A DNA stretch of 64,000 nt from a virus. Position 1 is the stretch's first letter. Each line of letters opens with the position of its first letter. The translations under genes were made by a program, and so were the position numbers. Shown piece by piece: positions 5,582 to 57,732 of the stretch. The stretch is from the IMG/VR virus record IMGVR_UViG_3300031758_000036, positions 1-64,000 of that record, one strand, 5' to 3'. The notes beneath the pieces are model-generated. The model had not been told where the DNA came from, made no database searches, and saw nothing but the letters and a program-made list of their open reading frames with translations.

Positions 5582-5974
5582 TTATGATCTTATTAATTGA
5601 CCGTCACTATAACCATTCTGGTACAATGGACACATTGACATGTATTGCCATATCAGTGTTCTGATACGTTGTACCTCCATTTGTGGTGTGTAATTATTAT
5701 TTCCTTTTGCCTGTTCCCACTCTAAAACATCCGCTTTGGTAAGTACTCTACCACTAGACTCATTGTTCAGATCACTCAGTTTAGTTTGAGCAGTCTCAAA
5801 TTGATCAATTAAGTCTAGGACACTAAAGACAGCATCACTAGAGATAGCACCGAGATCATTCATAGATACGGTGATTTGGTCAATTTGATAACTACCTATT
5901 GTCAGACCGCTAGCAATAAGTAGCCGAACTTGATCACCTTGTGACCAGCCATAGGTAGTATTTAAAGTCGCCAT
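5582..5974 (-). CDS. Putative structural protein (head-tail adaptor-like)
   Basis: 130 aa with LTKADVLEW; preceded on the minus strand by the late-promoter-like GGAACCATA motif. Confidence 0.45.
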   Translation of the reverse strand: MATLNTTYGWSQGDQVRLLIASGLTIGSYQIDQITVSMNDLGAISSDAVFSVLDLIDQFETAQTKLSDLNNESSGRVLTKADVLEWEQAKGNNNYTPQMEVQRIRTLIWQYMSMCPLYQNGYSDGQLIRS

Positions 5975-6046
5975 TTCCAGTGAAGTGTTGATACTTTATG
6001 GTTCCATTGGTGTTAGACTGGGTGAATAATATACCTTATAATATAT

Positions 6047-6268
6047 ATGGTAACAGCAAAGAAGTTTATCGAGTGCAATGTTGAGCTGGCACTGAGGGAT
6101 GCGATGGCGTTATGGTTGGCTATTGATTCTCAAGATGAGATTGCAGTGAGACAGTTATTACGGGAATTTGAGGCGTCTTATCCTGTTGGATATGGTAAGC
6201 AAGTAACTGTAAAAACACTGGCATTATTGTCGCCGGCCGACAAGGAATGGCTGCGTGAATTGTATTAG
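6047..6268 (+). CDS. Hypothetical protein
   Basis: 73-aa ORF preceded by TAGACT/TATAAT. Confidence 0.55.
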   Translation: MVTAKKFIECNVELALRDAMALWLAIDSQDEIAVRQLLREFEASYPVGYGKQVTVKTLALLSPADKEWLRELY

Positions 6269-6376
6269 CGTGAACATAATTCCTTGAGTTTCTTAATGAA
6301 ACCTAGAAAGTGCGTTTTTTTCTGTTTTGTAACAACGTGAACATAAATCGCTGAGTTTCTTAATGAAACCTAGAAA
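6269..6376. repeat. 41-bp imperfect direct repeat, two copies
   Basis: CGTGAACATAA...TGAGTTTCTTAATGAAACCTAGAAA at 6269-6309 and 6336-6376. Confidence 0.85.
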
Positions 6377-6545
6377 AACCCTGAAGCGCATGGGAGTGTT
6401 AAGAAATGTTACAGATGGCTGGGATCCGGAGCGGGTGCGCCGGCGTGGCGCGATCGTGAACGCCCAACGGGCGGTCGCCCACGATCACCATCTACGCTGT
6501 GTGGGGATCAAAACGCCATAACACTAGCATTATACTAATGACAAT

Positions 6546-6569
6546 AAAAAACGCCCCAAGATGAGGCGC
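6546..6569 (-). terminator. Rho-independent terminator
   Basis: GCGCC stem-loop followed by a T-run on the minus strand, downstream of the PcfJ-like gene. Confidence 0.6.
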
Positions 6570-6588
6570 TTGAGTGTAGTTAATCGCT

Positions 6589-8313
6589 TCAGGCTGGCGT
6601 TAGCTGTTGCAGGGCCATTCCGAACGCTTCGGTGTACTGACTCTTTTCAGTATCGCTAAGCCGGCGGTTGCATGTGTCGGCAATCTGATCCACATTCAGG
6701 CTGCCATTGCTGAGCTTCAGTTGAATGGTGAAACGCGGGACATTATCAATCATTGCCAGAACGATAAAGTGCGTTTTACTTTTGATTCCCTTCCGGTAGG
6801 TATCTGCATTCCCCACACAATTCCGAACTGCCCGCCCCCACGCGGCAAGTTGATGGACATCTTGTGGCTGAAAAAACGACCACCGTTGCCCAGATAGATC
6901 CACCCGAACCGGCTCTGGAAAGAGATCCTGGTGCAATCTTTCATTAGGCGTAGACAGTTTGAAGCATTCTGCTGAAACGTAATCATGGAACTCCGTAATG
7001 CGCCAGCGGTTCGGTTTAGCAAGTTCGAGCGGTTGGTTTTCATCGTAGTTGCCGGTTTTCTTGGTTTGAGCGTAGTGAAGTTGATCGAGCATGCCAAGAG
7101 TATCTTCCAGTTCTCGCATGCGGCCAGTGGTCAGGCCAGTGGTGGAACTTCTGTCGTAATCAACCTTGCGGGGATTACCTGCCCATTCTTCCGTTAATTT
7201 GGCGACTTCTTTCTCCATGATTTGAATGAAAGAAGCTATTGGCGTGTTGTTGCGGATCCAGTCTTTGGTGGCTTTGCTTGCATCTGGGCCACGTTCGATG
7301 TGAGTTGTAAGGTTGTAAACTTGCTGGCAATGGTCTAGCGTCGCATCAGGATAGAATTGCAGAAAGTCAGTGAGCACATTGAATTTGTGACAGAAAGCCG
7401 CCCAAGGCCGTTTGACTGCTTGACGAGAATCGTTACCTGGATCCAGATAGACTTTCAAGCATTCGTCGAATGCCTTGTTAAGTTCTTTCCTGAAGAAAGG
7501 TGTATCCAGAGCTGACTTAGCCTTTTCACACTTGTGGCGCAGTAGCCAGTTAGTTGCTATTTCATTAAAACTGCGATCGTCGTCATTCTCAAGATCCGGC
7601 CAGAAGCAACGGCGAATGTCATTGTTTTCTTTAATACGCGTAAACATACCACCTTCATCATTCCATTGTCCCAGACTTGTCCTTAGGAGTCGTTTCCAAT
7701 CCTGATAGCGTTGGCGCTTATGGTAGTCAGTCCTGCCCCAACCTTTCAGTAGGTTCTCACCGGGAATTGCGTCAAAGCCTTTCAGAATGAGATCAGTGGT
7801 GACATGCACGGTGTGTTCGATCATCCCAAGGCGACCGTACTTTCTTTCAGCAGTGACACAAACGTCTGCAAGTCTAAGTACTTCAGAGTGTTTTTTCTTC
7901 CACCCAACTGAAGACTGCAGGATGCCACCAGCTCGCTGTACTGTTGCCGGAGTGTTTTTGTAAGCAATAGTGCAGCCAAACAGGTAATCCTTAGGATTCT
8001 GTTTCAGGTAGTTCGGATGCCAAAACCACAGCGCAGTCCAGACCGAAGACTTATGAACCAGAAGCCCAAAGCCCTTTTCATTGTTAATGGTCATTGCCCG
8101 ATCTTTTTCTGTTTCTTCGTTGATGCTGGTGGCGTAAGCCTTCTGTTCTTCTGTTGTAAACAGCTCAACAGGAAACAGGCCCTCGGGAACACCCAGCGAC
8201 ATACGCGGCGAACCGTCAGCCTTCTCTTTCTTGGCGGCCCGGATGATAGGCTTCAGCGCGGGGTCGTATTCTGCGACCTTGGCGGCCAGGGTGTGGGGGA
8301 GCTGGAAGTGCAT
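6589..8313 (-). CDS. PcfJ-like domain protein
   Basis: C-terminal L..WG..VRNCVG...Y...I......IVL....PRFTIQL......QI...CNR pattern; own promoter TTGCGC-N17-TACATT. Confidence 0.75.
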   Translation of the reverse strand: MHFQLPHTLAAKVAEYDPALKPIIRAAKKEKADGSPRMSLGVPEGLFPVELFTTEEQKAYATSINEETEKDRAMTINNEKGFGLLVHKSSVWTALWFWHPNYLKQNPKDYLFGCTIAYKNTPATVQRAGGILQSSVGWKKKHSEVLRLADVCVTAERKYGRLGMIEHTVHVTTDLILKGFDAIPGENLLKGWGRTDYHKRQRYQDWKRLLRTSLGQWNDEGGMFTRIKENNDIRRCFWPDLENDDDRSFNEIATNWLLRHKCEKAKSALDTPFFRKELNKAFDECLKVYLDPGNDSRQAVKRPWAAFCHKFNVLTDFLQFYPDATLDHCQQVYNLTTHIERGPDASKATKDWIRNNTPIASFIQIMEKEVAKLTEEWAGNPRKVDYDRSSTTGLTTGRMRELEDTLGMLDQLHYAQTKKTGNYDENQPLELAKPNRWRITEFHDYVSAECFKLSTPNERLHQDLFPEPVRVDLSGQRWSFFQPQDVHQLAAWGRAVRNCVGNADTYRKGIKSKTHFIVLAMIDNVPRFTIQLKLSNGSLNVDQIADTCNRRLSDTEKSQYTEAFGMALQQLTPA

Positions 8314-8502
8314 GGGTGATTCCCTCTGACTTGTCTAATGTAGCACCCTGGCCTGGCCAGCGCAACGCCCTAACCAGAACAGGATGATGGTTGCAATATA
8401 AGTTAATATAAAGTGGTGAGCGTGACCAACATCTGCCTTCGGCGTTGGTCACGATCTCGCGCCACATCTGCACTGTAATAATTTGTTACAATATAATTAT
8501 TA

Positions 8503-8985
8503 TCAGAACATGCTGCCGATTTCCATATATTGTGGAGTCGGATCATAGTCTTGAATATCTACAACACATTTGCCGTAGTTTTCTATCACATAGGCCAGCC
8601 AACTGGCCAAGTCAGATGCGCTTGTTCCAACCTCTTCATCATCTGAATCGTAGTTGCCTATATTATATTTCAGGCCCCAATCAATGCGATAATTGTCGTC
8701 TATCGAGCCCTTGGTATCGTACCATAGCGGAGTTAATTCATAAGGCAAAATAGCCTGAGAAGCGTCTACCGTAATTTCAGCATTATCAATCGACGGTGAA
8801 TTTAGCAGCGTGCCAATATATTTAAAAAACTGCAGAGGCGTGCCTTCATGATATTCCGTCCGTGATTCCCTTTTTTTAATCTCGCGATTCCACACAACGC
8901 GCATAGTTGACCATTCAACCATACCAGAGGGCTGGGGGCGCGTATCTGTTGCCCAATCGGGCTCAAGCGGGCGAGGGTCGTGCAT
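8503..8985 (-). CDS. Hypothetical early protein
   Basis: 160-aa ORF, leader CAGGGATGAACCCACC-ATG, upstream TATGAT. Confidence 0.7.
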   Translation of the reverse strand: MHDPRPLEPDWATDTRPQPSGMVEWSTMRVVWNREIKKRESRTEYHEGTPLQFFKYIGTLLNSPSIDNAEITVDASQAILPYELTPLWYDTKGSIDDNYRIDWGLKYNIGNYDSDDEEVGTSASDLASWLAYVIENYGKCVVDIQDYDPTPQYMEIGSMF

Positions 8986-9020
8986 GGTGGGTTCATCCCT
9001 GTTGCCCTTAGATCATAGCA

Positions 9021-9044
9021 TAAAAAAGGGGGCCCGGTGGCCCC
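9021..9044 (-). terminator. Rho-independent terminator
   Basis: GGGGCC-ACCG-GGCCCC followed by a T-run on the minus strand. Confidence 0.7.
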
Positions 9045-9053
9045 GTAATGAAA

Positions 9054-9374
9054 CTAATCATAAGCCCAAATCTCTCCCGATTCGGCCCATGGTGGTCGCG
9101 ATAATTTCTGCCATTCCGCTATTTCTGTGAAGTCCAATTGCTCGCCTGATTGTTTTTTAGTTTTCAGAATCTTGTACCTTTCTTTGTATTGATGATACAA
9201 CTGCCAGTCAAAGTTTGACGGCAAAGGTGAGGGCCCATACTTAGCTTTATTGTAAGCCTTCTCAGCCAATGGCAATAATGCTACCGCGCCAAGTGCAACC
9301 AATAAAAAAGGTGATGCTGGCAGGGCTGAGAATGAGCCAGTATTTTCATCGTAAGCCCATTTAATTTCGCTCAT
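9054..9374 (-). CDS. Hypothetical protein with a predicted membrane segment
   Basis: Hydrophobic FLLVALGAVALLPLA; abuts the upstream gene. Confidence 0.65.
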   Translation of the reverse strand: MSEIKWAYDENTGSFSALPASPFLLVALGAVALLPLAEKAYNKAKYGPSPLPSNFDWQLYHQYKERYKILKTKKQSGEQLDFTEIAEWQKLSRPPWAESGEIWAYD

Positions 9375-10082
9375 TTAATTAGCCATCGCATAACGGTTCT
9401 TGCTACGCCCGTGAGCATAGATCACTACGTTAGCAGAATTACCATCGCACAATGAACAAACGGAACATTCTGTTTTGTGGCCACGTTCATCGGACGCCGC
9501 ACAATGAACAGTCCCGACAGGATCAACAGAATCTACAGGTGTGACCAGATAGGTCTTCCAACCGTTAGTAGTTGCTTCCAAATAATCACTAAAACCATCG
9601 CAGGAGGCTTGTGCAATGCCTTTCATATATTGCGCCCACGGTTGACGCCATTGATGAGTGTAGGCTGTATGTGTACGGCTTCTCAGTAGCGGCTCAGTCC
9701 ATACATTAGCGGGTACCATTGCGCCATCGCCAGCAGAACCGATCCGCAGGGCGACATTATCAAATAGGTGCCAATCGTTACCGATGTGAGCATAGTTACC
9801 ACGCTTGTAGCAGTTCCATACACTGAGCGGGCCTTGATACCAGATAACGTAGCAAGTTGCTTCGTTATATCCAGCGTGCGTACAGTTGCCACATACTGAT
9901 CGACCGAGGCCATTTTTAAACGCCTCGTTTGGTTTAACATCTTGGCGCATGATCCACGTTTGAATCATCGCACCGGTTTTACTGTTACTACTGGAATCCT
10001 CAAATCCTGTTGCAATTACAACAATCGGAGCGCCGTCTAAGTTAGACGGACCCTCCCAAATAATGCGGCCGTTGTTGTTCAT
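9375..10082 (-). CDS. Cys-rich phage protein (gp88-like, possible Fe-S/metal binding)
   Basis: IWEGPS.LDG.PIVVIATG, SNSKTGAMIQTWI, VCGNC, CSVCSLC, IYAHG; promoter TTGCAA-N17-TAAATT. Confidence 0.7.
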   Translation of the reverse strand: MNNNGRIIWEGPSNLDGAPIVVIATGFEDSSSNSKTGAMIQTWIMRQDVKPNEAFKNGLGRSVCGNCTHAGYNEATCYVIWYQGPLSVWNCYKRGNYAHIGNDWHLFDNVALRIGSAGDGAMVPANVWTEPLLRSRTHTAYTHQWRQPWAQYMKGIAQASCDGFSDYLEATTNGWKTYLVTPVDSVDPVGTVHCAASDERGHKTECSVCSLCDGNSANVVIYAHGRSKNRYAMAN

Positions 10083-10269
10083 TTGGGTTAGCCCAGTTTT
10101 GGACTCTTCAAATTTAGCACACGATCCGGAAATTTGCAACCGGAAAATCCTGCAGGAAATTATTGACAAAAATTAGAGAAAATTAGCATTGAAATAATTG
10201 TTAACAAATAGCCGAATCGGGCTGCCTTGCGCTAGTATGGTGAGCGTGAATGAACCTGACTTCGTTCAT

Positions 10270-10419
10270 TCACGATCTCTCGCCTGGATCTACTATATTT
10301 ATCTCACACAGAATGCGGTCCTCAAACATAGAATCGCAGAGGTCCGTAGCCTCATCAGCCGAAGCATACGGACCATATACGTTGCCGTCCTCATCAGTAA
10401 CAACGTAGAACTGCGTCAT
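10270..10419 (-). CDS. Small acidic protein (49 aa, not in ORF track)
   Basis: MTQFYVVTDEDGNVYGPYASADEA...PGERS*; starts next to the previous stop and its TGA lies inside the repeat at 10240-10279. Confidence 0.65.
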   Translation of the reverse strand: MTQFYVVTDEDGNVYGPYASADEATDLCDSMFEDRILCEINIVDPGERS

Positions 10420-10761
10420 TTATCCATATACAATTTCCTTAAAACAAGCTACTTGGATAATAGCATCAGCAGCATATCCGTCAATATACCCATAATCATT
10501 TTCCTTAATTGCTGCCATTATATCGGCGCGAATATTATCAGAAATTTCAACTCTATTTTCAGTAATAAGTGCAATAGCACGCTCGGCATCTGACTTACAG
10601 ACTGTATGAATTTCAGCCCCCTCTTCACAAGAAAGGGAATAGATCTCGCTGACAGCATCATACTCTGCCTCGTCAACCCAGTAACCGATAGCATAGCCGG
10701 CGGTGTCGAAGATGTCAGCGAAGTCGTCGCTTGTTAGGTTGAAATTAATTGTAATTTGCAT
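10420..10761 (-). CDS. Hypothetical acidic phage protein
   Basis: IGYW...ID..AADAIIQVACFKEIVYG; GGAGG RBS. Confidence 0.75.
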   Translation of the reverse strand: MQITINFNLTSDDFADIFDTAGYAIGYWVDEAEYDAVSEIYSLSCEEGAEIHTVCKSDAERAIALITENRVEISDNIRADIMAAIKENDYGYIDGYAADAIIQVACFKEIVYG

Positions 10762-10764
10762 GGC

Positions 10765-10950
10765 TCAAACCTCCATCAGATCGGCGTAACCGGCATCCAG
10801 AGCATCCTCAAGCTCGGTTACTAGGCCATCAAAGTCTTCACTGGCTGGCAGAACTGTAATCAGAACGTCTACCAAACCACCGTATTCCTCGCGCAAACTA
10901 TTCAGGTAGTCTGCGCGATCGATGAAGCCGTTGTCGGTGTAAACAGTCAT
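10765..10950 (-). CDS. Small acidic hypothetical protein
   Basis: MTVYTDNGFIDRADYL...EDFDGLVTELED; promoter TTGCCA-N17-TATCAT. Confidence 0.7.
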   Translation of the reverse strand: MTVYTDNGFIDRADYLNSLREEYGGLVDVLITVLPASEDFDGLVTELEDALDAGYADLMEV

Positions 10951-11062
10951 GGGTGAACCCGGTTGACTCCCTAATGATAGCACTGCTGGCAAATGTTGGC
11001 AAGCCTGGCTCCGGCGCGTTGCGAATTGTGACCGTGAGCAGCAACCGTAGGGCCGCTCACGG

Positions 11063-11350
11063 TCACGCGTCTTCTGGCTTCAGTTCAGTGATCTGGCCGT
11101 CAACCTTGATGCGGAACACGCGGCGAGCATCGAAACTGCGCCATTGACCCAACTTGATATCCATGATCTTGAAGTTGTTAAGCTTCGTGACAGGATCCTT
11201 AATCGGGTGGCCAGTGCCCAGTACTTGACCCTTGTGCAGCGGATTGAACGTCAGTTGACGCTCGCTGCCATCGGCCTTGATGAAATTGACAGAAACCAAG
11301 TGGGAGCCGGCTTCTGAAATTTTTGCGCGGATAACTTCGTGGTTAGACAT
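11063..11350 (-). CDS. WYL-like / SH3 beta-barrel phage protein
   Basis: VSVNFIKADGSERQL...MDIKLGQWRSF; stop codon supplied by the repeat arm. Confidence 0.75.
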   Translation of the reverse strand: MSNHEVIRAKISEAGSHLVSVNFIKADGSERQLTFNPLHKGQVLGTGHPIKDPVTKLNNFKIMDIKLGQWRSFDARRVFRIKVDGQITELKPEDA

Positions 11351-11480
11351 GGGTGGTTCCCTGTTCTGGAAAAATCCTAGCACAGATCGGGCCGGGTGCG
11401 GACGCGAGCTGATCGTGAGCAATGACCGTAGGGCCGCTCACGCTCACGGTGTGTTATCATTCAATCAGGAGGGAAGACCC

Positions 11481-11639
11481 ATGTCAGTCACTGAATCTTT
11501 CGAACGCTTCCTTGCTCTGGAGGAACAATCCCTGGAGCGCATCGAGACCCTGCTGGCCAGCATCCGTGAGGATATTGCCTGGCTGGAAGCCCTGGATGCC
11601 GATGAACAGGCGCTGGAGGTGACATGTAACGAGGTGTGA
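11481..11639 (+). CDS. Small acidic coiled-coil protein (inverted cassette)
   Basis: AGGAGG RBS, extended -10 TGnTATCAT, TGA inside the left arm of repeat 11636-11674. Confidence 0.75.
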   Translation: MSVTESFERFLALEEQSLERIETLLASIREDIAWLEALDADEQALEVTCNEV

Positions 11640-11678
11640 CCGTGATCAATGACCGTAGGGCCGCTCACGCTCACCATT

Positions 11679-11885
11679 TCACCTAACGGAAAAATCCAAT
11701 GAACGCCACCGAATTGAACGCCAAAGCTCAAGAATTGCTGGACGCGATCTGGGGACCGATCTCGGAATTTCAAGCCATGCGTAACGACTCTGGCCCCGTT
11801 TCCTGGGATGCAGCCAGTGAGGCCCGTAACTGGCTTGATAAGCTTTGTGAAATCGAGTACGTGCTAGAGTCTTGATCGTGAACAA
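11679..11885 (-). CDS. Possible small basic protein
   Basis: ORF fills the space between two repeats, but the start lies in a repeat and there is no clear RBS. Confidence 0.35.
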   Translation of the reverse strand: MFTIKTLARTRFHKAYQASYGPHWLHPRKRGQSRYAWLEIPRSVPRSRPAILELWRSIRWRSLDFSVR

Positions 11886-11906
11886 TGACCGGAGGGCCGC
11901 TCACGC

Positions 11907-12179
11907 TCACTCGTAATCGCGTCGCCGCGTGCTATCCCATTCAGCCTGCTCGCAACGGGCAGTGTGCCACAGGTCGCGTAAATCGTAGGCGAACAGATTT
12001 AGAATTTCGTAGGTGACGCATTGCAGCCCCTCTTGGATGCATTCGCTGTCAACGTCATCTAGGACACTAAACACCCAGGCTGCATCAATCTCAGTGAGAT
12101 CGCTGGGAATGTCAAAGTCGGACAGGTCGTCTAGATGGGCCCACAGGGGGCTGAGATCGACTGCAGTGGCTGTGGTCAT
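11907..12179 (-). CDS. Acidic hypothetical early protein
   Basis: GGAG RBS, TTGCGC-N17-TATGCT promoter, stop in the repeat arm. Confidence 0.75.
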   Translation of the reverse strand: MTTATAVDLSPLWAHLDDLSDFDIPSDLTEIDAAWVFSVLDDVDSECIQEGLQCVTYEILNLFAYDLRDLWHTARCEQAEWDSTRRRDYE

Positions 12180-12277
12180 TGGATTGGCTCCATTGGATGT
12201 GACTAGCATAGCCTGTTTGGCGGCCAGGCGCAAGTGCTGTAACTGATCGTGATCAATGACCGTAGGGCCGTTCACGC

Positions 12278-12517
12278 TCATGCCTTGGAGCGTAGCACCG
12301 GCTGGCTGTAGGTGTCAACAACCAGCTCCAACCACTGCCGCGCAACGGTTCCGGCTTTGCAGATGTCGCGAGCCAGGAGCACGGTCTCACGTGAGACCGT
12401 ATCGGCAGTGCCGCTGATGAGAGCCCAGGCATCGGCCCAGGTGGTAGGGGTGGCCTGCAGGACCTCATAAGCCTGCAGGATTTCAGCCTTGGTGGAGCGG
12501 GAAGTGATCTGAGCCAT
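12278..12517 (-). CDS. Hypothetical early protein
   Basis: MAQITSRSTKAEILQAY; stop in the repeat arm. Confidence 0.75.
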   Translation of the reverse strand: MAQITSRSTKAEILQAYEVLQATPTTWADAWALISGTADTVSRETVLLARDICKAGTVARQWLELVVDTYSQPVLRSKA

Positions 12518-12583
12518 GATGGGTAGTCCCTGTTGGATGGTGAGCGTGATCAATGACCGTAGGGCCGTTCGCGATCACAATTC

Positions 12584-12627
12584 GGAAAATTCCTGGGGAA
12601 AATTCCTGGGGAAATTCCTGGGAATTT
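12584..12627. repeat. Short tandem repeat of about 12-13 bp, three copies
   Basis: (GGAAAATTCCTGG)-type units. Confidence 0.8.
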
Positions 12628-12899
12628 CAGTAGCGGATTTCTCCGGGCAGAACGGGACGCAAGTTCAGCGGCTCACGGGCGGATTCATAGCAGTCCAACT
12701 CGGTCTTCAATTGCCTGGCTTTCTCCCGCATCAGCGCGACATCGGCAAGCGGTGCGCGGTTCACTAGAACCTCCCCTTCAAACAGGGTATCATTCAGTAA
12801 TCCGACCTTGGCGATAGCATCCTCGATTGCCAGCCAGGCTTCGTCAAAGGCCTGACTGTAGGCGGCGGTGGCGTGAGCGGGGCAGAGTGTGGCTGTCAT
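12627..12899 (-). CDS. Hypothetical early protein
   Basis: GGGAG RBS, TTGACA-N16-TAGACT promoter. Confidence 0.7.
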   Translation of the reverse strand: MTATLCPAHATAAYSQAFDEAWLAIEDAIAKVGLLNDTLFEGEVLVNRAPLADVALMREKARQLKTELDCYESAREPLNLRPVLPGEIRY

Positions 12900-12990
12900 G
12901 GTGGGTTCTCCCGGTAACTTGGTCAGTCTACAGGATGGTGGGCAGATGTCAACGGGTGAGCGTGATCAATGACCGCAGGGCCGTTCGCGA

Positions 12991-13404
12991 TCACGCTGCG
13001 AGCCGCTCTGCCTGCTGCAGGAACCAGTTATCGGCATCTAAGCGCATCGGCCACTCCTCAGAGCCCTCCCAAGGCGCCGTGGTGGTATGCCACTCCTAAT
13101 CAGTCTGGGAGATGCCCTCACCCGGCACGAAGGCCCGTAGCAGGGCGTTCAGGCGGCTCTTAGTGGTGGATGTGCGGTACCCGCAATCAAACAGGGAGAT
13201 CCTCATGATGCCGGGTTCGACAAGTCCGATCCGATGGCCGTGCAGCAGGATCTCAACGTGCCGATGGTGGCTGAGGGTGCCACCGATGCCGTGGTGTTTA
13301 ACGGTGACTTCGGTGTTGCCGCACTTGAGCAGTCGGCCGGCCTTGTGGGAGTCGCTCAGGGCGGAACGGATGGCTTGGATCATCCGGGCTTCAGTCTTGC
13401 GCAT
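12991..13404 (-). pseudogene. Phage early protein interrupted by an in-frame TAG at 13096-13098
   Basis: MRKTE...LHGHRI...TTKSRLNALL...ISQTD*EWHTT...RLAA*; frame stays open for 34 more sense codons to a TGA in the repeat arm; promoter TTGACA-N18-TAGTCT. Confidence 0.6.
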
Positions 13405-13748
13405 GGGGGTGTTCCCTCTGGGGTTAACAGGAGACTAGCGTGGATTGAATCGAGGTGTCAACAGGATGGCGATCGTGAGCATTGACCGTAGGGCCGTTCG
13501 CGATCACGGTTTGCCCCTGAAGGCGAAAATTTGGACCTCGCTGGTTCGGCGCTCCGGAACGGCATGATCGTGAAGTCCCTGAATTACTAAATCCGGCCAG
13601 ATCGCCGCCCTGAGCTGCAATGTGAGCGTGAAAACAATCGACCGCAGGGCCGTTCGCGATCACGGTTCCTGATTAGCTGGTGAGCGGTGCTTGCAGGATG
13701 AGCGTGAACAGCCCCTGTCACCCGCCCACCCGCCCCACGATCACAATT

Positions 13749-13806
13749 CGTAACATAAGGATTACTGATGTTACAATTCCGCAACATAAGAGTTGCTGAT
13801 GTTACA
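13749..13806. promoter_or_regulatory. Two palindromic operator-like sites, 31 bp apart
   Basis: ATAAGGATTACTGAT at 13755 and ATAAGAGTTGCTGAT at 13786, each followed by GTTACA. Confidence 0.6.
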
Positions 13807-13862
13807 GTGCTGTCGCGGATTGTGACATAACGGTAGCGTTATGGTGCTATGGCGTTTGCATT

Positions 13863-13887
13863 AAAAAGGCCCTGAGATTTCAGGGCC
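13863..13887 (-). terminator. Rho-independent terminator
   Basis: GGCCCTGA stem-loop followed by a T-run on the minus strand. Confidence 0.7.
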
Positions 13888-13897
13888 ATTCTTGTCG

Positions 13898-14236
13898 TTA
13901 ATTCTCGCTGATTAGGTACCGGCAAAAATATAGAGAATCCTCGGGGATCTCGTTATTTTCTGGGACGTTCTCGATTGAACACCACTTGGTGCCGTCTGAT
14001 TCCTCACTCCTCCAGGTGGAAGGGGCGAAGTCAATGCAGGCAAGATCCTCTCGGATCAGTTGCATCAATTCAGTCCGATTGACGCACCAATGAAGCCAGG
14101 CCTCGATATTCCGTCCGCTTGGTGATACCTCGGCACGAATGTACCAGTCGGTATCGATCGAGCAGTAGCTGAGGGCGTTCTCCAACATCTTGCCGTCAAT
14201 CAGTGTCGCCTTGGCGGTGGTCGGTGCTGCGATCAT
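13898..14236 (-). CDS. Hypothetical early protein
   Basis: 112-aa ORF, leader GGAATCATCCAA-ATG. Confidence 0.7.
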   Translation of the reverse strand: MIAAPTTAKATLIDGKMLENALSYCSIDTDWYIRAEVSPSGRNIEAWLHWCVNRTELMQLIREDLACIDFAPSTWRSEESDGTKWCSIENVPENNEIPEDSLYFCRYLISEN

Positions 14237-14290
14237 TTGGATGATTCCAGAAAGTAAGAAAGGGGGGGACCCTTAAGGGTCCCCTGTTGC

Positions 14291-14581
14291 TCACTGCCAG
14301 TCGCGCCAGGCTTCGTGATTCATTTGCCAGAGCAGGTCGCCGATGGCGCCTGTCTTCAGGAAGTCGAACCACTGGGTTTTGCAGGCGTATTCTGCGCGGC
14401 CCATCAGGCCGGGCAGGTCGCTGAGGTCAGCCAGCAGCAGCGGCGGCAGTCCGGCATCGTAGCCGGCTACAACAGCATCCTGCCGGAGGTCCAGGGCAGC
14501 CCAGAGCAGGGCGACAAGGGCGGAGCGACCGTCATCACGGGCGGCCTTGAAGGCGTACCGGACGGTGTTAGCGATGGTCAT
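14291..14581 (-). CDS. Hypothetical early protein
   Basis: 96-aa ORF, leader GGAATCATCCTTC-ATG, hairpin downstream at about 14265-14284. Confidence 0.7.
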   Translation of the reverse strand: MTIANTVRYAFKAARDDGRSALVALLWAALDLRQDAVVAGYDAGLPPLLLADLSDLPGLMGRAEYACKTQWFDFLKTGAIGDLLWQMNHEAWRDWQ

Positions 14582-14719
14582 GAAGGATGATTCCGTTGTT
14601 AAGGTGCGTGCGATCGGTTTCCCTCTCGCATGCCTGTATCCTAGCGCCCGTGCCCGCCGATCGGGGCCATTGTGAAGGATTGCAACAATGATCTTTCCTT
14701 ATCAGTCGCTGCGCGACAG

Positions 14720-14813
14720 ATCAGCAACCCTGATCGATCAGCACCGCTGATGTCACAAGCGTGTAACATCAGCATCGCTTATGTTACAAATCCGACACAT
14801 TAGCATTGCTGAT
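14720..14813. promoter_or_regulatory. Array of palindromic operator-like sites ATYAGC-N3-SCTKAT
   Basis: Copies at 14720, 14737, 14768 and 14799; the last three are spaced exactly 31 bp apart. Confidence 0.65.
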
Positions 14814-15065
14814 GTGTGATCGTGGGGGTTATGGCGTACGGGTGTGGCGCCACGATCACGATGCGGTGCTGCGCTCCTGCCTGAGCCTGTCACTGGGCCT
14901 CCAGCAAGAGCTGGCGGCGACTAAATTCCACCGAGTTGCCGGCGGATTCGCCAGGTACCCCCACCCCGATTTTCGGATTCTCTCCTCTAGGTTATCCCCC
15001 CGCAAAATTTTTCAAAAAATTTGAATTGGGACACTAAGCAATAAACCAGTCTTACAGCGGTACAG

Positions 15066-15248
15066 ATGATTCATCCAGAGTTACCGGAGGGAATCAAGGG
15101 TATTTTAGAGGAGTTACAGCATTCCAGTATCAGTTTAGTATGGTGTAAGGGGTGTGGGTGTAACAGACCAGTGAACAGTAAGTATGTGGAATACCTTGGT
15201 GATGGTATTGAGGGGTGTCGATTTTGCCAATCGGAGTATTATAAATAG
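15066..15248 (+). CDS. Small zinc-binding protein
   Basis: CKGC...CRFC motifs. Confidence 0.6.
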   Translation: MIHPELPEGIKGILEELQHSSISLVWCKGCGCNRPVNSKYVEYLGDGIEGCRFCQSEYYK

Positions 15249-15295
15249 TGTATCAGTGGATGTGGGAAGTATAATGTATTGCGCACAGGGATGAA

Positions 15296-15805
15296 GTGAG
15301 TAATTCTCCATTATTACCATATTATAATGGATTAATATTAAGTCGTAGTGGGCAGACGGTCAGTGTTGTGGATGGCAGGATAGAAGCGGATACCAGCAGT
15401 GGGAGTAAATATTTAGTAAAGGTATTTGTATCACAAGGTGCTGAGATTGTCAATATACCAAAGGAAGTAGAATTAGGGCAGGAGATACCTGGAGCGAGTG
15501 GATATGCGTACAGTTATAAGGGATATGCGCTGAGTGTTTCAGTTGTAAGCAGTGGATTTGAGTTAGATGCCAGTATTGGATTACAGGGTAATGTAAGTGG
15601 ATTAACGTTTAGCGATATTACGGGTCATCCGGGGTATCTCAAGAATGGGGTCAGGGGAGACATTTTACTGGGTTTAGATAAGGTGAATCATTATCAGATT
15701 ATAAATACTGGTGGAGTATATAATGGTGTTGGAATTGACGAGTTAATATATAATGAAATAAGTGGAGTACCGATCAGGCTGAGTGTTGGCGGGGTGTATA
15801 TATAA
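15296..15805 (+). CDS. Putative head-closure/neck protein
   Basis: Beta-rich 169 aa at the start of the late cluster; function inferred from position. Confidence 0.45.
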   Translation: MSNSPLLPYYNGLILSRSGQTVSVVDGRIEADTSSGSKYLVKVFVSQGAEIVNIPKEVELGQEIPGASGYAYSYKGYALSVSVVSSGFELDASIGLQGNVSGLTFSDITGHPGYLKNGVRGDILLGLDKVNHYQIINTGGVYNGVGIDELIYNEISGVPIRLSVGGVYI

Positions 15806-16299
15806 TGGGTGTTAAAATAAGTGGTGGTGGTTATAAGGCACCAAAATTAAAGTCATATCGTACCAGTGTAGATTTAAGTATTGATTTAGATATTAAGATA
15901 AAGATGCCATCTGATGGTGCATCGATTATAACGGATAAGATTGATGAGGCAACGAATTTAGCGTTAAATATCATATCATCAGAGATTGGTGGATATTTAA
16001 ATGATGCGATATCATCAAGTATATGGGGTGGTAGTGATCCAGATATTGTTGATAGCGGTAAATTACGTAATTCGTTAACGGTTACCAGGAGTGGATCCAG
16101 TATTATTATCAGTTATGACGAACCGTATGCGAAGTTAATACATTATGGTGGATATATTGTACCATATGGTAATGAGAGTGCTGCCAGGAAGTACATTGAA
16201 GGTAAGCCATGGGTGGAATCAATTATATTTGGCAATGGTCCGATTGCTGGATATGATTACCAGGAGGCATACAACAGGGCGATAGCAGCAATTCGATAG
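15805..16299 (+). CDS. Tail completion protein (HK97 gp10-like)
   Basis: IVDSGKLRNSL...YDEPYAKLIHYGG...KPW. Confidence 0.75.
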   Translation: MGVKISGGGYKAPKLKSYRTSVDLSIDLDIKIKMPSDGASIITDKIDEATNLALNIISSEIGGYLNDAISSSIWGGSDPDIVDSGKLRNSLTVTRSGSSIIISYDEPYAKLIHYGGYIVPYGNESAARKYIEGKPWVESIIFGNGPIAGYDYQEAYNRAIAAIR

Positions 16300-16355
16300 A
16301 GTGGTTATAAAAATGGTAAACTGACGAGTGATTGTTTTCAGTTTGGATTCAAGAT

Positions 16356-16928
16356 ATGGGTAAGTTACCGTTTGTTGTTGCTCCTCGGTTGCAGCCAATT
16401 ATTGAACGTATTGGTACGCAGGAGTCGGGTATTATTGAAATTGAACGAAGGGGATATTTAACGAGTGGTGAGAAAAATTTTGTGCAACAAATTGTCCAAC
16501 AAGATAGGGGTACATTAAAATTAATTGATTTAGCGCGTAAGGTATCGCGAGATAAGGGTTATGATTTACAGCGAGCATATGAATTAATTGTATCAGCGAT
16601 TACTGGTACTGATAAGACGGAAGAAGCGGAGGTTATTGAAAGCGAATATTCGGAGAACATCCAGGAGGCAATCAAGGAGATCACGATTTCCAAATCGAGG
16701 GAGGACTTAGTAATGGCGGCATGTTTAATTACGAATCGGATTGATTCTGAATTTGACATAAATGACATTATGCAAATCCATCCTGATATTGTTAGCGAAT
16801 TAGCGCAACTATATCGAGATGAGGAGATGAAATCAATTGAACGTTTACAAGAGTCAGGAGATGAGCAAAAGGAGGAGCCAAAGATTGAGCAAATCGAAAA
16901 AAAGCGCAGGGCTCCGAAGGGGATCTAA
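16356..16928 (+). CDS. Tail assembly chaperone (G)
   Basis: Ends just after the slippery heptamer A AAA AAG at 16898-16904. Confidence 0.7.
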   Translation: MGKLPFVVAPRLQPIIERIGTQESGIIEIERRGYLTSGEKNFVQQIVQQDRGTLKLIDLARKVSRDKGYDLQRAYELIVSAITGTDKTEEAEVIESEYSENIQEAIKEITISKSREDLVMAACLITNRIDSEFDINDIMQIHPDIVSELAQLYRDEEMKSIERLQESGDEQKEEPKIEQIEKKRRAPKGI

Positions 16929-17536
16929 TACCGTTTGATGATTATTACTGGTTACTGAAGAGAGAATTTCCTGGAGATAGGGAGTTCTCTATTGATAATT
17001 ATTGGTTATTACCGTATGAGTACATTATAGGAGCGGTAATAGCAAGTAGTGAGTTAAGGATGCAAAGATTGCATGAATATGAAAGGCCGATATCGATGTT
17101 AGCGGCGCAACAAGCAGAGATGAATAGGGACAAGAAAAGACGTAGAAAGCCATATGACTTAACTGATTTTTATATTTATATAAACGAAAGTCAAAATGAC
17201 TTACCTGATGGCGTTTATGGAGCATGTGCCGGTCGGTTAATTGCATTAAGCAAATATCCAAGTTGGGCGTTATTCTGTTATAATGATTTAAAGGTAAATG
17301 CGAAGGATTATACGGCACCTGAGGATAAGAATGTTGCGTTACTGTCAAGTGATGCTATTATTTTAGCGCCAAGGATACAGGATGATGTGTGCACTGGGAT
17401 GTTAATTGCATTACGAAGTGCATCGAATCAAATTGTAGAGTTTACTGACCTGCAGGGTGATACCATCAGGTTACTGATGCCTGAATTAAAGGGACAAGCA
17501 GTTGCGGATGAAGATGTGGAGCTCAGAATTGTCTAG
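16904..17536 (+). CDS. Tail assembly chaperone -1 frameshift extension (T part of GT)
   Basis: The -1 frame is open from the slippery site (AQGSEGDLIPFDDYYW...) through ORF 17060..17536. Confidence 0.75.
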   Translation, partial: AQGSEGDLIPFDDYYWLLKREFPGDREFSIDNYWLLPYEYIIGAVIASSELRMQRLHEYERPISMLAAQQAEMNRDKKRRRKPYDLTDFYIYINESQNDLPDGVYGACAGRLIALSKYPSWALFCYNDLKVNAKDYTAPEDKNVALLSSDAIILAPRIQDDVCTGMLIALRSASNQIVEFTDLQGDTIRLLMPELKGQAVADEDVELRIV

Positions 17537-17542
17537 CAAACA

Positions 17543-17965
17543 TTAAGCAACACTTAAATCTGTATCATTTGATACAGTTTTTGTTTTTATTAATGATTGA
17601 TGATCATTGTTCAGCCATTGTTTGATGCGCCATTCAGCATTTGCATCATAAAAAGACTGTTCTCGATACCATTCAACCCAATCGCGAGATGCTTTTGAGT
17701 GATTGCATGATACACATGCTGGTGTTACGTTATTTGTACGATCTGTTCCGCCTTTTGACTTTGGCCTGATGTGATCAATCGTTAAGCTAAGGTCATCAAT
17801 TGGAGGCTTACCGCAGTAAGCGCAACAATAATTCCATGCTTGTTTAACCGATTCTCGCCATTGCCTACGTGCTTCTTTGCGTGTCAAGGCGGACATATTG
17901 GATAAATAATCAGAAGAATGCTCGTACAAGGGGTAAATATCCCCAGCGGTCCATGGACCTAGCAT
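17543..17965 (-). CDS. HNH endonuclease
   Basis: CAYCG...LTIDHIRPKSKGG...NVTPACVSCNHSK. Confidence 0.9.
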   Translation of the reverse strand: MLGPWTAGDIYPLYEHSSDYLSNMSALTRKEARRQWRESVKQAWNYCCAYCGKPPIDDLSLTIDHIRPKSKGGTDRTNNVTPACVSCNHSKASRDWVEWYREQSFYDANAEWRIKQWLNNDHQSLIKTKTVSNDTDLSVA

Positions 17966-18082
17966 GTGATTATTTATTTGTATGGTTTTGGATGTTATAG
18001 CCAGTCAATCGAACCAAGGGGAGCTTAAAGATAGCCATATCTTGGTGTTAGAATGTTGACATATGTTTCCCATTTGGAGCAG

Positions 18083-18337
18083 TTAGTTCAACCAGGGCGC
18101 GTATTCTCCATCGACATATTGGTCTGCTTTTTTCTGCTTGCGAGCTAATCGTTCTTCAAGCTTTTTCTTCCTGGTTCTTGTCAATTCAAGTCGTTCGCGC
18201 CATTCTTCAGTTTTTTCTTTACTTATAGTTTTGATTGAGGCGGTAGCGGGTGGCAAGCCGTGTCCATTATGATGAACAGTGACTTTTTCCCTGTCGAATT
18301 CCATCTTTTTCACGGTGACTACAAGACAGTTTGCCAT
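18083..18337 (-). CDS. Hypothetical basic protein
   Basis: 84-aa ORF co-oriented with the HNH gene. Confidence 0.55.
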   Translation of the reverse strand: MANCLVVTVKKMEFDREKVTVHHNGHGLPPATASIKTISKEKTEEWRERLELTRTRKKKLEERLARKQKKADQYVDGEYAPWLN

Positions 18338-18377
18338 TCAGGCAACCTAAGGTCGGATTGTTTCTAATATTTCAACA

Positions 18378-53221: not shown

Positions 53222-53947
53222 ATGCCCGATTCAATCCCTAATCTCGCCGGCATTGCAACCAAAGATCTGGTTGAAACTATTGGCGGCGGTAGTTTTAAGG
53301 CTAGTTACATCAACTGGGCTCGGACCTTTAACCTGCTGCATGAGCATGCACCCGGTTGGTGCCTTGAGATCATGACTGCGCCCGATGGAGGCCAGGTCTT
53401 TCGTGCTCCTGGTAACGGCGGTTACCTGATGCTGCGCTTCGTTCATTTGGACGGGACTGTGCTACCAGAAGTCCCCCAAGCAATCATGGACACCCGTAAC
53501 CAGCCGATTGCTTTCGATAAGATCAGCGCCCGTGATGTGACAGACACTCATCGTCGCGGTGGCTGCATGGCGGCTGCTATGACATTTGGCTTGGCACATG
53601 AGCTGTGGGCCAAGATGCCACTGGAGAGCGGCTACGCGGGCCAGGAGGCTGCTGGGGTAGCAGTGGCGCCACCGGCCTCCACAGGCGCCTCCAAGGCCCC
53701 TCTGCAGGTTGATCCGCAGCCAACCATGGAAGACTTCCTGGAGGCCTGTCTGGGGAAAGGATTGACCACTCTGGCTGCTGACAAATTGATTAATGTGATC
53801 GGTGACAATTATGCAGGCGCGTTGAAGACACTTGCCAGCAAAACGCCTGAATGGATTGCTGAGCAAAACGCTCAAGCCGAACCCGCCCCAAAGCCCGCGA
53901 AGACCACAGCGAAGAAGTCGACGAAACCGGACCCGAGCGACTATTAA
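53222..53947 (+). CDS. Sak/Rad52-like single-strand annealing protein (DUF1071-like)
   Basis: SYINWA, AIMDTRNQPI, ARDVTDTHRR..AAAMTFGLAHELW. Confidence 0.75.
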   Translation: MPDSIPNLAGIATKDLVETIGGGSFKASYINWARTFNLLHEHAPGWCLEIMTAPDGGQVFRAPGNGGYLMLRFVHLDGTVLPEVPQAIMDTRNQPIAFDKISARDVTDTHRRGGCMAAAMTFGLAHELWAKMPLESGYAGQEAAGVAVAPPASTGASKAPLQVDPQPTMEDFLEACLGKGLTTLAADKLINVIGDNYAGALKTLASKTPEWIAEQNAQAEPAPKPAKTTAKKSTKPDPSDY

Positions 53948-54945: not shown

Positions 54946-55299
54946 ATGGCTACTATTAGTATTGCAGGTACTGTGACCGGTCGACCCGGAGAGTCTCCTG
55001 TCACCGTAAAAACTTTTGAAAACGGCGATAGCGTTGCTAGCTTCTCTGTGGCAGATCGGGCATATGTCTATTCTAAGCCCGGTTCGGAACGCCAGGGACA
55101 ATTCTATCGTTGTGAAGTGCGTGGTAAGGCCGCTGAAATCGTAATCGAACGCATCAAACGCGGCGACAAGGTCGGCGTGTCTGGGCAGCTCATTCAGCGA
55201 ATGTCTAACGAGAAACTGTTTCTTGATGTAAAAAATGCATCGGTTACGTTCCTTGAAGATAACCCGAATCGACCCCAAGGGGGCGAAGTGCCTTTCTAA
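54946..55299 (+). CDS. ssb: Single-stranded DNA-binding protein
   Basis: VASFSVA, FYRCEVRGKAAE, KRGDKVGVSGQL, C-terminal VPF. Confidence 0.9.
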   Translation: MATISIAGTVTGRPGESPVTVKTFENGDSVASFSVADRAYVYSKPGSERQGQFYRCEVRGKAAEIVIERIKRGDKVGVSGQLIQRMSNEKLFLDVKNASVTFLEDNPNRPQGGEVPF

Positions 55300-56880: not shown

Positions 56881-57732
56881 ATGGCTGCAGTAGCCTACAA
56901 TCAGCCTGATTATCAGTACAGAAGGGAATCGGGAGAAAACCAGAGTTATTTAAAGAATATCCTGGTAAGCCCTGCTCATTACAAAGCTTCAAAGAAAAGG
57001 CGCTTTTTCCCTACCATTAACATGGAAATAGGGTCTGCTTTGCATTGCCTTGTACTGGAGGGTGAGGAAGAATTCAGTAAAAGATATGTAATGAAACCCG
57101 AAGATATTGCCTTAAACACAAAAGAAGGAAAAGAATGGAAAGCAGCGCAAACACATAAAACAATATTGACTAATACTGAAAAAGAACGAGCATGGGATAG
57201 CGTGCATGGAATGGCAAATTCTTTGTCTAAACTTGATTGGTTTAATCAAGATTTGCCAGATTATCGTAAGTACAACGAGTTATCTATTTACTGGGAAGCG
57301 GATGGCATAGAATGCAAAGGCAGGCTTGATCGACTCGTTGATATGGGCGATCATTTACTGGTACTCGATCTGAAGACAACTGATTCTGTCGAATATAATA
57401 CGTTTGTGAAGAAGTTAGTAGGAGGCATGAATTACTTATTCCAATCAGCATGGTATTCAGAGGCGGCGAGCCTGGCGTATGATAAGCCCTGCAAATTTGT
57501 ATTTGCTGCTATCGAAAGAACGGAACCTTGGACGTTGGCTCTGTTTGAGATATCCGACGAGATGATGGAGGAGGGGAACCGGCAGATCAAGCGTGCGCGG
57601 CAACTATTAAAGAAATCCTTAGACACTAAGGAGTGGCCTAGCCCAGATGTGCGTTATAATGTATTGAGCCTGCCAAAGTGGTACCAGTCACCAGTGGCGG
57701 ATTATCATCCAGAATTTGAGGACTTGTTCTGA
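56881..57732 (+). CDS. PD-(D/E)XK exonuclease (RecE/ExoVIII-like)
   Basis: SPAHY, IGSALHCLVLE, CKGRLDRL, LDLKTT, Y..Q.AWY. Confidence 0.88.
   Translation: MAAVAYNQPDYQYRRESGENQSYLKNILVSPAHYKASKKRRFFPTINMEIGSALHCLVLEGEEEFSKRYVMKPEDIALNTKEGKEWKAAQTHKTILTNTEKERAWDSVHGMANSLSKLDWFNQDLPDYRKYNELSIYWEADGIECKGRLDRLVDMGDHLLVLDLKTTDSVEYNTFVKKLVGGMNYLFQSAWYSEAASLAYDKPCKFVFAAIERTEPWTLALFEISDEMMEEGNRQIKRARQLLKKSLDTKEWPSPDVRYNVLSLPKWYQSPVADYHPEFEDLF

Follow-up and report, generated by a model that had tools for sequence, protein, structure and literature searches.

Introduction

In T4-type phages, stem-loop elements named promoter-early stem-loops (PeSLs) lie between small ORFans (orphan open reading frames) of a hyperplastic early region, and insertions, deletions and replacements distinguish related phages, the crossovers lying in the PeSLs (PMC2839356, PMC4122927). 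According to the first report, no dedicated recombinase is known for PeSLs; exchange is ascribed to the phage recombination machinery, and short homologies are argued for in T4 (Arbiol et al. 2010, PMC2839356). Here, we describe a family of imperfect palindromes (hereafter the hairpin) that separates small genes in the leftward early arm of a cyanophage genome, IMG/VR record IMGVR_UViG_3300031758_000036. Sequence comparisons show the hairpin to be a family-wide linker at which gene cassettes are exchanged, reordered, inverted, duplicated and lost, both within and between related phages. The record is an 85,756 nt virus genome with 127-nt direct terminal repeats and is rated complete; its first 64 kb (positions 1 to 64,000) are called the window, and coordinates refer to it unless another contig is named.

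Repeats between small genes are also known from other systems. Integron attC sites are palindromes of one orientation between unrelated small genes, with a strand-specific fold, unpaired bases, a variable apex and internal stops. Their ends are of the form RYYYAAC/GTTRRRY, their recombinase is the tyrosine recombinase IntI, and the cassettes are promoterless and expressed from Pc beside attI. Between the early genes of T7, a conserved interrupted hairpin (RNase III site) is repeated in the transcript sense, and mycobacteriophage stoperators and start-associated sequences are short regulatory repeats of double-stranded DNA (dsDNA) in gene arrays. Gene arrays of halovirus HF2 are punctuated by short intergenic repeats that are reported to be regulatory, being promoter or operator sequences on dsDNA (PMC8707807).

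A sequence-only reading of the window, based on its letters and the translations of its open reading frames (ORFs), had interpreted the locus as an integron-like cassette array in a phage. In our comparison, the closest known kind is the linker-mediated modular shuffling of the PeSL type: the hairpin would work like PeSLs without being a member of that family.

Results

The hairpin family in the window

The palindrome is 39-47 nt long, has the arms GTGAKCGTG/CACGMTCAC and is present in 14 copies, all of them between 6450 and 14859 (Table 1). This count was obtained by a relaxed search of the whole 85,756-nt genome (these arms with at most two mismatches in total, and 16-33 nt between them), which found no copy in the other 77 kb and agreed with the 14 palindromes counted in the same interval by the sequence-only reading. 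Twenty mononucleotide-shuffled genomes gave only 0-2 copies each. The strict arm pattern matched five times versus zero expected, and the core pattern, with at most two mismatches, matched 11 times versus a mean of 1.44 expected, nine of the 11 matches being inside the array. The core GACCGNAGGGCC is present in nine copies, always on the + strand, and eight consecutive copies between 11028 and 13507 are exactly 39 nt long, which bears out the shared core and the constant length that had been claimed. Distances between copies are 34-1927 nt overall and 34-474 nt in the dense part, and these intervals hold genes. The GC content of the dense part is 57.4%, versus 46.9% for the genome.

Each arm is built from two direct hexamers of the form GTGANC, whose fifth base is mostly unpaired (alignment columns 5/48 in 26 of 41 distinct copies and columns 13/38 in 29 of 41). 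The minus strand folds into an approximately 12-bp stem, a bulge of 3 nt and an apical stem of 4 bp, reproducing the structure proposed earlier. In the copies at 8416 and 10240, the usual apical stem is replaced by longer, perfectly complementary inner stems of unrelated sequence. Two hairpins of a related contig (L208, 192-234 and 611-653) have kept the family interior, and their arms are a different, perfectly complementary 11-nt pair; this is the clearest covariation for the stem. On the alignment of 42 copies, the covariation of the given structure (0.060) was no better than that of shuffles (0.058), because the arms hardly vary. Structural support for the stem rests on the replaced inner stems, the arms of L208 and the strand asymmetry reported below. 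No Rfam 15 covariance model matched the hairpins at E<=1, and the genome has only two tRNAs at the gathering score.

Arrays of the same family in related phages

We found the hairpin family in at least nine other viral or metagenome contigs, in which hairpin length ranges from 38 to 47 nt when all arrays, including that of the window, are considered. A pattern scan of JGI metagenomes identified three overlapping contigs (L091-L093, 98% identical, 10 distinct copies) that match the window at the DNA level in the hairpins alone. Arm-pattern and protein-guided scans of IMG/VR identified arrays of 11 copies in L140 (the same as L207), six in L176 (the same as L266) and three and two in L187 and L112, as well as smaller sets in L210 (four copies), L204 (two), L209 (one) and, at contig starts, L224 and L226 (one each). 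A covariance model built from 42 hairpin copies (R1) confirmed the IMG/VR arrays. It also detected two copies in the whole genome of the cultured Synechococcus phage S-CRES1 and three around the homologue of gene O in the complete record behind L011, and no hairpin in S-CBS2. The S-CRES1 copies, at 32280-32319 and 32843-32882 of its record (5598-5637 and 6161-6200 of L253), bracket gp61 and gp62; the latter is an S-adenosylmethionine (SAM) hydrolase according to the depositors, matches Pfam DUF3574 and has its stop codon inside a hairpin. S-CRES2 is 97.8% identical to S-CRES1 across this two-hairpin region.

The arrays of L140, L176, L187/L112 and L210 occupy the same slot as that of the window, directly left of homologues of window genes 15066-19583, and many IMG/VR contigs of relatives start either at a hairpin or some kilobases upstream of the late genes. 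In three locus sets, R1 found the hairpin in 6/50, 1/80 and 1/42 loci, so that it marks a sub-clade. An alignment search with gene O yielded 80 distant loci with hairpins in L011 alone (a single-protein search with gene O yielded no related locus), and among 42 loci with homologues of a 148-aa cassette gene, R1 found hairpins only in L266.

The specific hairpin pattern had no match in 185,579 species-representative bacterial genomes. A looser arm pattern gave at least 120 stretches in bacterial genomes, of which those listed are chance matches in GC-rich coding DNA and unrelated palindromes. In viral contigs, the exact 16-nt core gave three chance matches without arms, and a 49-nt hit of the relaxed finder in L223 was dropped since R1 did not confirm it. 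A GATC-rich palindrome family with repeated GTGATC units was observed on several contigs (L304, L329, L341, L342) of one Anaerolineae metagenome-assembled genome; it has the arm motif in common with the hairpin by composition but a different interior, and it is unrelated to the hairpin family. No description of the hairpin family was found in the literature searched.

Gene content, order and orientation change at the hairpins

Related arrays share few cassettes. The window and L140 have only genes E (54% identity) and D (36%) in common, and a gene of 148-151 aa that is common to L091, L176, L140 and L210 is absent from the window. The late-gene backbones of L210 and L140 share 75.7-79.9% identity. 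Three cassette blocks are more alike (93.4%, 89.9% and 91.3%) and are arranged in a different order. In the alignments of these two contigs, homology begins or ends at hairpins, and two joints could be placed within the right arm. In hairpin 1193 of L210, the left arm, the interior and the inner part of the right arm match one hairpin of L140, whereas the final 5 nt and the adjoining cassette match a second one; in hairpin 818 of L210, the right arm and its cassette are as in L140 and the interior is not. Over all array pairs, 14 block ends could be assessed; by our count, nine of them are no more than 6 nt from the edge of a hairpin, and five fade inside cassettes. About one in 14 would be expected by chance, as estimated from hairpin density. 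The alignments of L140 and L210 showed no 'empty' junction, at which neighbouring cassettes common to both would meet without a hairpin.

Other kinds of rearrangement were also observed. The E-family gene of L092 faces the hairpin in the opposite direction to those of the window and L140. Three identical hairpins with a period of 427 nt in L187 (300-1192) represent a tandem duplication of cassette plus hairpin, and the same unit is present at the end of L112. Gene P is located in the window on the minus strand at the far left end of the leftward arm (5582-5974); its homologue in four related contigs (L140, L176, L187/L112) is on the + strand, flanked by the array and the late genes, implying that it was relocated and inverted. 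Among L091, L092 and L093, all seven differences inside the repeats fall at sites that also vary from copy to copy, and five of the seven are G/C changes at one loop position; this is the pattern that exchange between copies would be expected to leave. Position 22, in the middle of the apical loop, is G in one contig and C in another in five of eight hairpin comparisons.

Cassettes also differ in how widely they occur. Exact protein copies of A, B, O and a late gene are on 14-15 contigs, compared with seven for H, five for D, four each for E, F, Gp and Hp, and three for C. One form in the 90% cluster of gene C is encoded by an 89,989-nt contig, the gene O of which has only 62% identity. Taken together, differences in content, reordering, breaks of homology at the hairpins and inversion support shuffling at the repeats. 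The sequence-only reading had proposed such capture and shuffling and had suggested a covariance-model search of relatives as the check; such a model confirmed arrays whose content, order and orientation change at the hairpins.

Strand-specific folding

The predicted RNA folding energy averages -18.0 kcal/mol on the minus strand versus -13.5 kcal/mol on the plus strand, and 36 of 41 distinct copies have the lower value on the minus strand. Under the same pairing scheme, 85.3% of cells are paired on the minus strand versus 76.5% on the plus strand, and G.U cells number 71 versus 13. The advantage of the minus strand holds in arrays with three different interior types. This asymmetry is suggestive and is not a formal test, because the copies are related by descent and exchange.

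Contig ends in sequencing runs

Public runs containing window DNA are labelled as lake water, freshwater and 'fungus' metagenomes, and their data consist of assembled contigs only; 11416-12990 has next to no cover in run X4 and bins are uncovered in run X11, and such blanks were not used as evidence. In run X4, the contigs listed end at 6454, 8420, 8454, 10244, 10275, 11032, 11062, 11413, 12990, 13702, 13740, 14820 and 14855, each time 5 nt into an arm of a hairpin. Hairpin-bridging contigs are absent among the X4 contigs listed and present in other runs (e.g. 10641-11517 in run X12). In one contig of run X8, the right half of the hairpin at 11028 is joined to a different left half and a different neighbour. 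No joints were listed for the assembled contigs on the window. The depths of neighbouring contigs differ (e.g. 13.4, 29.6, 28.3, 23.5 and 10.2), which is only a hint as these values are sums over organisms.

Several causes of the X4 ends were considered. Repeated k-mers of a single genome or simple variants do not explain the fixed position. Interior excision leaving the outer half-arms joined was rejected, as it showed no enriched junction motif and missed the X4 ends by 1 nt. Fold-back chimeras fit the X4 ends where arm position 5 is mismatched and fail at the hairpin at 11028.

Cassette genes, stop codons and promoter-like sites

The arms supply TGA stop codons to genes K, H, F and E and to a 20-codon ORF on the minus strand (10270, 11063, 11907, 12278 and 12991, respectively), and to Hp and Gp on the plus strand (11637 and 11873). 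Six of these stops had been reported from the sequence and all are present; that at 11873 is additional. The ORF ending at 12991 is an uncertain gene because it has only 20 codons. The hairpins at 13469, 13622 and 13698 form a cluster with no solid gene in the gaps of 114 and 34 nt between them. Cassette proteins are mutually unrelated: no pair matched at E<0.1, and no paralogues were found. The sequence-only reading had described most intervals of the dense part (about 115-475 bp) as holding one unrelated small ORF; the lack of relationship is borne out, and the dense intervals measure 34-474 nt.

A Pfam family was assigned above the cut-off to one of 10 cassette proteins of the window (gene C, Kyano_Gp96), the rest being ORFans, and to one of eight cassette proteins of other arrays (DUF7178). 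Searches of Pfam, PHROGs and one Atlas search with the cassette and neighbouring proteins revealed no nuclease or recombinase near the array. A role of the cassettes in anti-defence or host takeover, as had been suggested, rests on a cassette of one relative, S-CRES1 gp62, with its SAM hydrolase annotation; apart from Kyano_Gp96, the cassette genes of the window are ORFans.

Extended -10-like sites (TGnTAnnnT or GCTAnnnT) were found as pattern matches beside many hairpins, on the gene-start side and 1-85 nt away, and are missing next to many other copies. As their distance is variable, the promoter would be specific to the cassette and not part of the repeat. Sigma70-like sites, such as the sequence-only reading had described, are likewise pattern matches beside many hairpins. 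Of 51 hairpins, two have a U-rich tail on the minus strand and 10 have one on the plus strand. Genes A, B and O each end in a canonical U-tract terminator, and another is located at 9029-9044. The hairpin was therefore rejected as an intrinsic (rho-independent) terminator, given its few U tracts and the canonical terminators elsewhere in the same arm.

Other repeats are present in this arm. Palindromic ACATNAG-N5-CTGATGT sites at 13750-13806 and 14732-14815, with a phase of about 31 nt, form a second family; they are inverted on either side of genes A and B, with 55-nt arms that are 73% complementary, and may be operator candidates at the head of the leftward arm. Three tandem GGAAA(A)TTCC-type palindromes lie at 12584-12628, between the hairpin at 12540 and the stop codon of gene D, and a 50-nt direct repeat (6260-6309 and 6327-6376, 88% identical) lies just left of the hairpin at 6450.

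The phage and its cultured relatives

Products encoded by the genome include a 1572-aa tape-measure protein, collagen-like fibres, an intein-bearing large terminase, a DnaB-like helicase, a primase, a portal protein, an endolysin and two sigma factors. Genes between 5582 and 15320 are mostly leftward, and the remaining genome is rightward. The nearest cultured phages in tblastn searches are the Synechococcus siphoviruses S-CRES1/2/3 and S-CBS2, with 38-43% identity in the late gene at 16332-16928; the nearest cultured match of gene O is in S-EIVl (31% identity, tblastn). Megablast of 6000-15000 against phage records gave no match. The phage is a siphovirus-type, S-CBS2/S-CRES-like cyanophage with a lytic-type genome, and not a T4-type myovirus. 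The terminase gene (59472-62006) is split by an intein with a LAGLIDADG-type domain, and a sigma-factor-like gene (54120-54920) matches PHROG phrog_351.

Table 1. Hairpin copies, genes of the leftward arm and candidate recombination genes
Feature	Positions	Strand	Size	Remarks
Hairpin copy 1	6450..6488		39 nt	family arms, own interior
Hairpin copy 2	8416..8458		43 nt	extended perfect inner stem instead of apical stem
Hairpin copy 3	10240..10279		40 nt	extended inner stem; contains gene K stop
Hairpin copy 4	11028..11066		39 nt	perfect 12-bp arms; contains gene H stop
Hairpin copy 5	11409..11447		39 nt	between divergent genes H and Hp
Hairpin copy 6	11636..11674		39 nt	left arm contains stop of + strand gene Hp
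Hairpin copy 7	11872..11910		39 nt	convergent genes: Gp stop in left arm, F stop in right arm
Hairpin copy 8	12243..12281		39 nt	contains gene E stop
Hairpin copy 9	12540..12578		39 nt	22 nt upstream of gene E start
Hairpin copy 10	12956..12994		39 nt	3 nt upstream of promoter-like TTGACA-N16-TAGACT for gene D
Hairpin copy 11	13469..13507		39 nt	
Hairpin copy 12	13622..13663		42 nt	114 nt from copy 11, no solid gene between
Hairpin copy 13	13698..13744		47 nt	divergent interior; 34 nt after copy 12
Hairpin copy 14	14816..14859		44 nt	own interior; array right end, 206 nt before rightward late-gene block
Gene O	6589..8313	-	574 aa	PcfJ-like; hairpin-flanked also in related record behind L011
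Gene N	8503..8985	-	160 aa	no family
Gene M	9054..9374	-	106 aa	no family
Gene L	9375..10082	-	235 aa	Cys-rich; nearest Atlas clusters DUF7227/GP88-like phage proteins
Gene K	10270..10419	-	49 aa	
Gene J	10420..10761	-	113 aa	
Gene I	10765..10950	-	61 aa	promoter-like TTGCCA-N17-TATCAT upstream
Gene H	11063..11350	-	95 aa	phrog_2267; weak WYL_2 match (E 0.027)
Gene Hp	11481..11639	+	52 aa	cassette
Gene Gp	11699..11875	+	58 aa	cassette
Gene F	11907..12179	-	90 aa	
Gene E	12278..12517	-	79 aa	homologues: L140, same orientation, 54% identity; L092, opposite relative to hairpins
Gene D	12627..12899	-	90 aa	homologue beside E in L140
Uncertain ORF	12991..13053	-	20 codons	ends in hairpin copy 10
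Gene C	13096..13404	-	102 aa	Pfam Kyano_Gp96, E 8e-14
Gene B	13898..14236	-	112 aa	followed by canonical U-tract terminator at 13868-13887
Gene A	14291..14581	-	96 aa	followed by canonical terminator at 14265-14284
Candidate single-strand annealing protein	53222..53947	+		Sak-like, E 1.7e-4, 21.6 bits vs Pfam cut-off 22.3; putative role at hairpins
Single-stranded DNA-binding protein (SSB)	54946..55299	+		putative role at hairpins
PD-(D/E)XK exonuclease	56881..57732	+		exonuclease VIII-like; putative role at hairpins

Discussion

Comparison with known systems

The likeness to PeSLs lies in conserved stem-loop elements that flank ORFans and in related arrays that differ with crossovers in these elements, as seen for L140/L210 and other pairs. 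Membership in the PeSL family fails because the composite promoter-stem-loop motif is lacking and the phage is not of the T4 type. PeSLs unite a sigma70 early promoter with a stem-loop in one motif, whereas here the hairpin alone is repeated; the carrier here is a siphovirus-type cyanophage and that of PeSLs a T4-type myovirus. The window hairpin also differs in its conserved arm sequences, its overlap with stop codons, its few U tracts, its constant orientation, the better fold of one strand and the inversion of cassettes.

Integron attC sites are resembled in the one-strand fold (36/41 on the minus strand), the unpaired columns 5/48 and 13/38, the variable apex, the constant orientation and the stops inside. 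This is a resemblance in form and not proof of recombination of single-stranded DNA. All 42 aligned copies end in arms of the GTGAKC.../...GMTCAC type and none has RYYYAAC/GTTRRRY core sites, whose absence had already been noticed; at 39-47 nt, the window hairpin is shorter than attC, many cassettes have promoter-like sites (pattern matches) beside them, and the cassettes point in both directions and reside in a lytic-type phage genome. PF00589, PF00239 and PF01797 had no match in the complete 85,756-nt genome, and the PF00589 control was positive in 14/14 genomes, so that the array is neither an integron nor an HUH element. The earlier failure to recognise a recombinase in the window thus extends to the whole genome for tyrosine, serine and HUH Y1 families, and the integron-like label survives as an analogy and not as membership.

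Like the RNase III sites of T7, the element is an interrupted hairpin that is repeated between early genes and has the sense of their transcript. Only about 16 bp are paired here, however, some copies are found between divergent genes or in clusters without genes, and most cassettes appear to have their own promoter. Unlike the repeats of HF2 and the stoperators, a hairpin structure persists here while arms or interior are replaced, and recombination joints map to it. Two further candidates were rejected: a REP/RAYT (repetitive extragenic palindrome/REP-associated tyrosine transposase) or IS200/IS605-type element, in view of the lack of PF01797 matches, the restriction of copies to one region and the lack of matches to the specific pattern in species-representative genomes; and a CRISPR array, in view of intervals of 34-1927 nt containing genes.

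Possible mechanisms

We lean towards the explanation that the leftward early arm is a hyperplastic region of self-contained small-gene cassettes, which are separated by the hairpin and shuffled by general recombination, with the hairpin also serving as an RNA boundary element. Each cassette would carry its own -10-type promoter-like site and ribosome-binding site. The shared 39-nt sequence would be the site of exchange, through template switching or general recombination at short homologies, the agents probably being the Sak-like annealing protein candidate of the phage, its PD-(D/E)XK exonuclease and its SSB. Annealing-protein systems use homologies of a few tens of bases, and a 39-nt linker is therefore a plausible substrate. 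In leftward transcripts, the hairpin may act as a boundary element, whether 3'-end stabiliser, processing site or attenuator, and such a role would account for the best fold being that of the minus sense, for the contact or overlap with stop codons and for the missing U tract.

A number of points weigh against this general-recombination account. A simple scan for promoter-like patterns gave 14 matches versus 10.7 in shuffles, that is, no enrichment, and the match of the annealing protein is just below the Pfam cut-off. Inverting a cassette without the hairpin interiors needs crossovers within arms of 9-12 nt, which is too short for annealing-protein recombination. The arms are conserved among phages whose conserved proteins are 25-50% identical, and the interiors are array-specific. 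Orientation of the hairpin relative to the late genes is constant in 45/45 readable copies (10 contigs), although cassette genes run both ways, and the minus-sense fold is still the better one where all flanking genes are on the + strand. The 13 listed contig ends of run X4 share a fixed position, 5 nt into an arm, whereas homologous exchange should spread over the whole 39 nt. The constant orientation, the fixed ends and the strand-specific wobble pairing, which is independent of gene direction, would rather be expected from a dedicated structure- or site-specific system, in which the minus strand folds and the stem is cut at its base, at arm position 5|6, by an unrecognised enzyme of the phage or the host. 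Such a system would also account for the hybrid L210 hairpin 1193, whose switch point separates the last 5 nt from the inner right arm, for outer 5 nt that follow the cassette (a rare pentamer lies beside the 148-aa gene in both L091 and L176) while interiors stay array-specific, for inversion of the cassette and not of the hairpin, and for the L208 arms, which were swapped for a complementary pair around a retained interior. We nevertheless consider it rather unlikely, since no tyrosine or serine recombinase and no Y1 HUH protein was matched in the complete genome, no candidate enzyme was found adjoining the arrays and the assembled contigs show no listed joints. Moreover, the 5|6 position comes from the assembly graph of one run, other runs having ends near hairpins at a different base, and gene conversion (concerted evolution) also yields array-specific interiors. 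Similarly tentative is the idea that the hairpins would be docks of an integron-like system of lytic cyanophages, its recombinase unknown, by which cassettes with 5-nt inverted termini and their own TGA would be swapped or flipped, also between distant co-infecting phages.

Somewhat less likely again, in our opinion, is a purely regulatory element (a T7-style RNase III or other processing site, a 3' stabiliser, an attenuator or an operator), at which breakpoints would be found simply because viable recombinants join between genes. Consistent with this view are its location at gene boundaries and next to stop codons, its better fold in the leftward-transcript sense, its arm sequence, conserved as in a recognition site for a protein or RNase, and the many promoter-like sites in the region. 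However, joints were resolved within the hairpin and not just between genes, near-identical contigs differ at copy-polymorphic positions, and a 3'-end element would have nothing to end between the divergent genes at 11409 or in the gene-free cluster of 13469, 13622 and 13698. Constant orientation and a minus-sense fold regardless of gene direction are not predicted by a purely mRNA-level role. An operator or stoperator on dsDNA needs neither a self-complementary interior nor variable spacing, and the length of 38-47 nt, the compensating inner stems, the L208 arms and the strand-specific wobble pairs argue against it. Of the alternatives named by the sequence-only reading, an additional role in RNA processing or at 3' ends agrees with the better fold of the minus strand; a plain array of dsDNA operators fits poorly. 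A short, multi-copy palindrome with concerted sequence within one genome might finally suggest a selfish miniature mobile element (miniature inverted-repeat transposable element or REP-like) that spread by transposition into intergenic sites. This explanation we regard as highly improbable: the copies lie in one region and one orientation with none elsewhere in 77 kb, have a fixed relation to stop codons and leave no hairpin-free junction between shared neighbouring cassettes. In addition, no HUH transposase was matched in the genome, and species-representative bacterial genomes lack the specific pattern, the listed matches of the arm pattern being unrelated.

Implications

The particular features here are a sharply defined linker with conserved arms, constant orientation and a strand-specific fold that is independent of gene direction, with breakpoints a few bases inside the arms and with a cultured carrier. 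As the cultured phages S-CRES1 and S-CRES2 carry a two-hairpin cassette, the questions of RNA boundary versus recombination substrate and of the enzyme can be tested at the bench. The model R1 together with the arm motif provides a searchable marker for the variable pool of early or counter-defence genes of these phages in metagenomes. The hairpin family extends linker-mediated modular shuffling beyond T4-type myoviruses to a clade of freshwater and estuarine cyanosiphoviruses.

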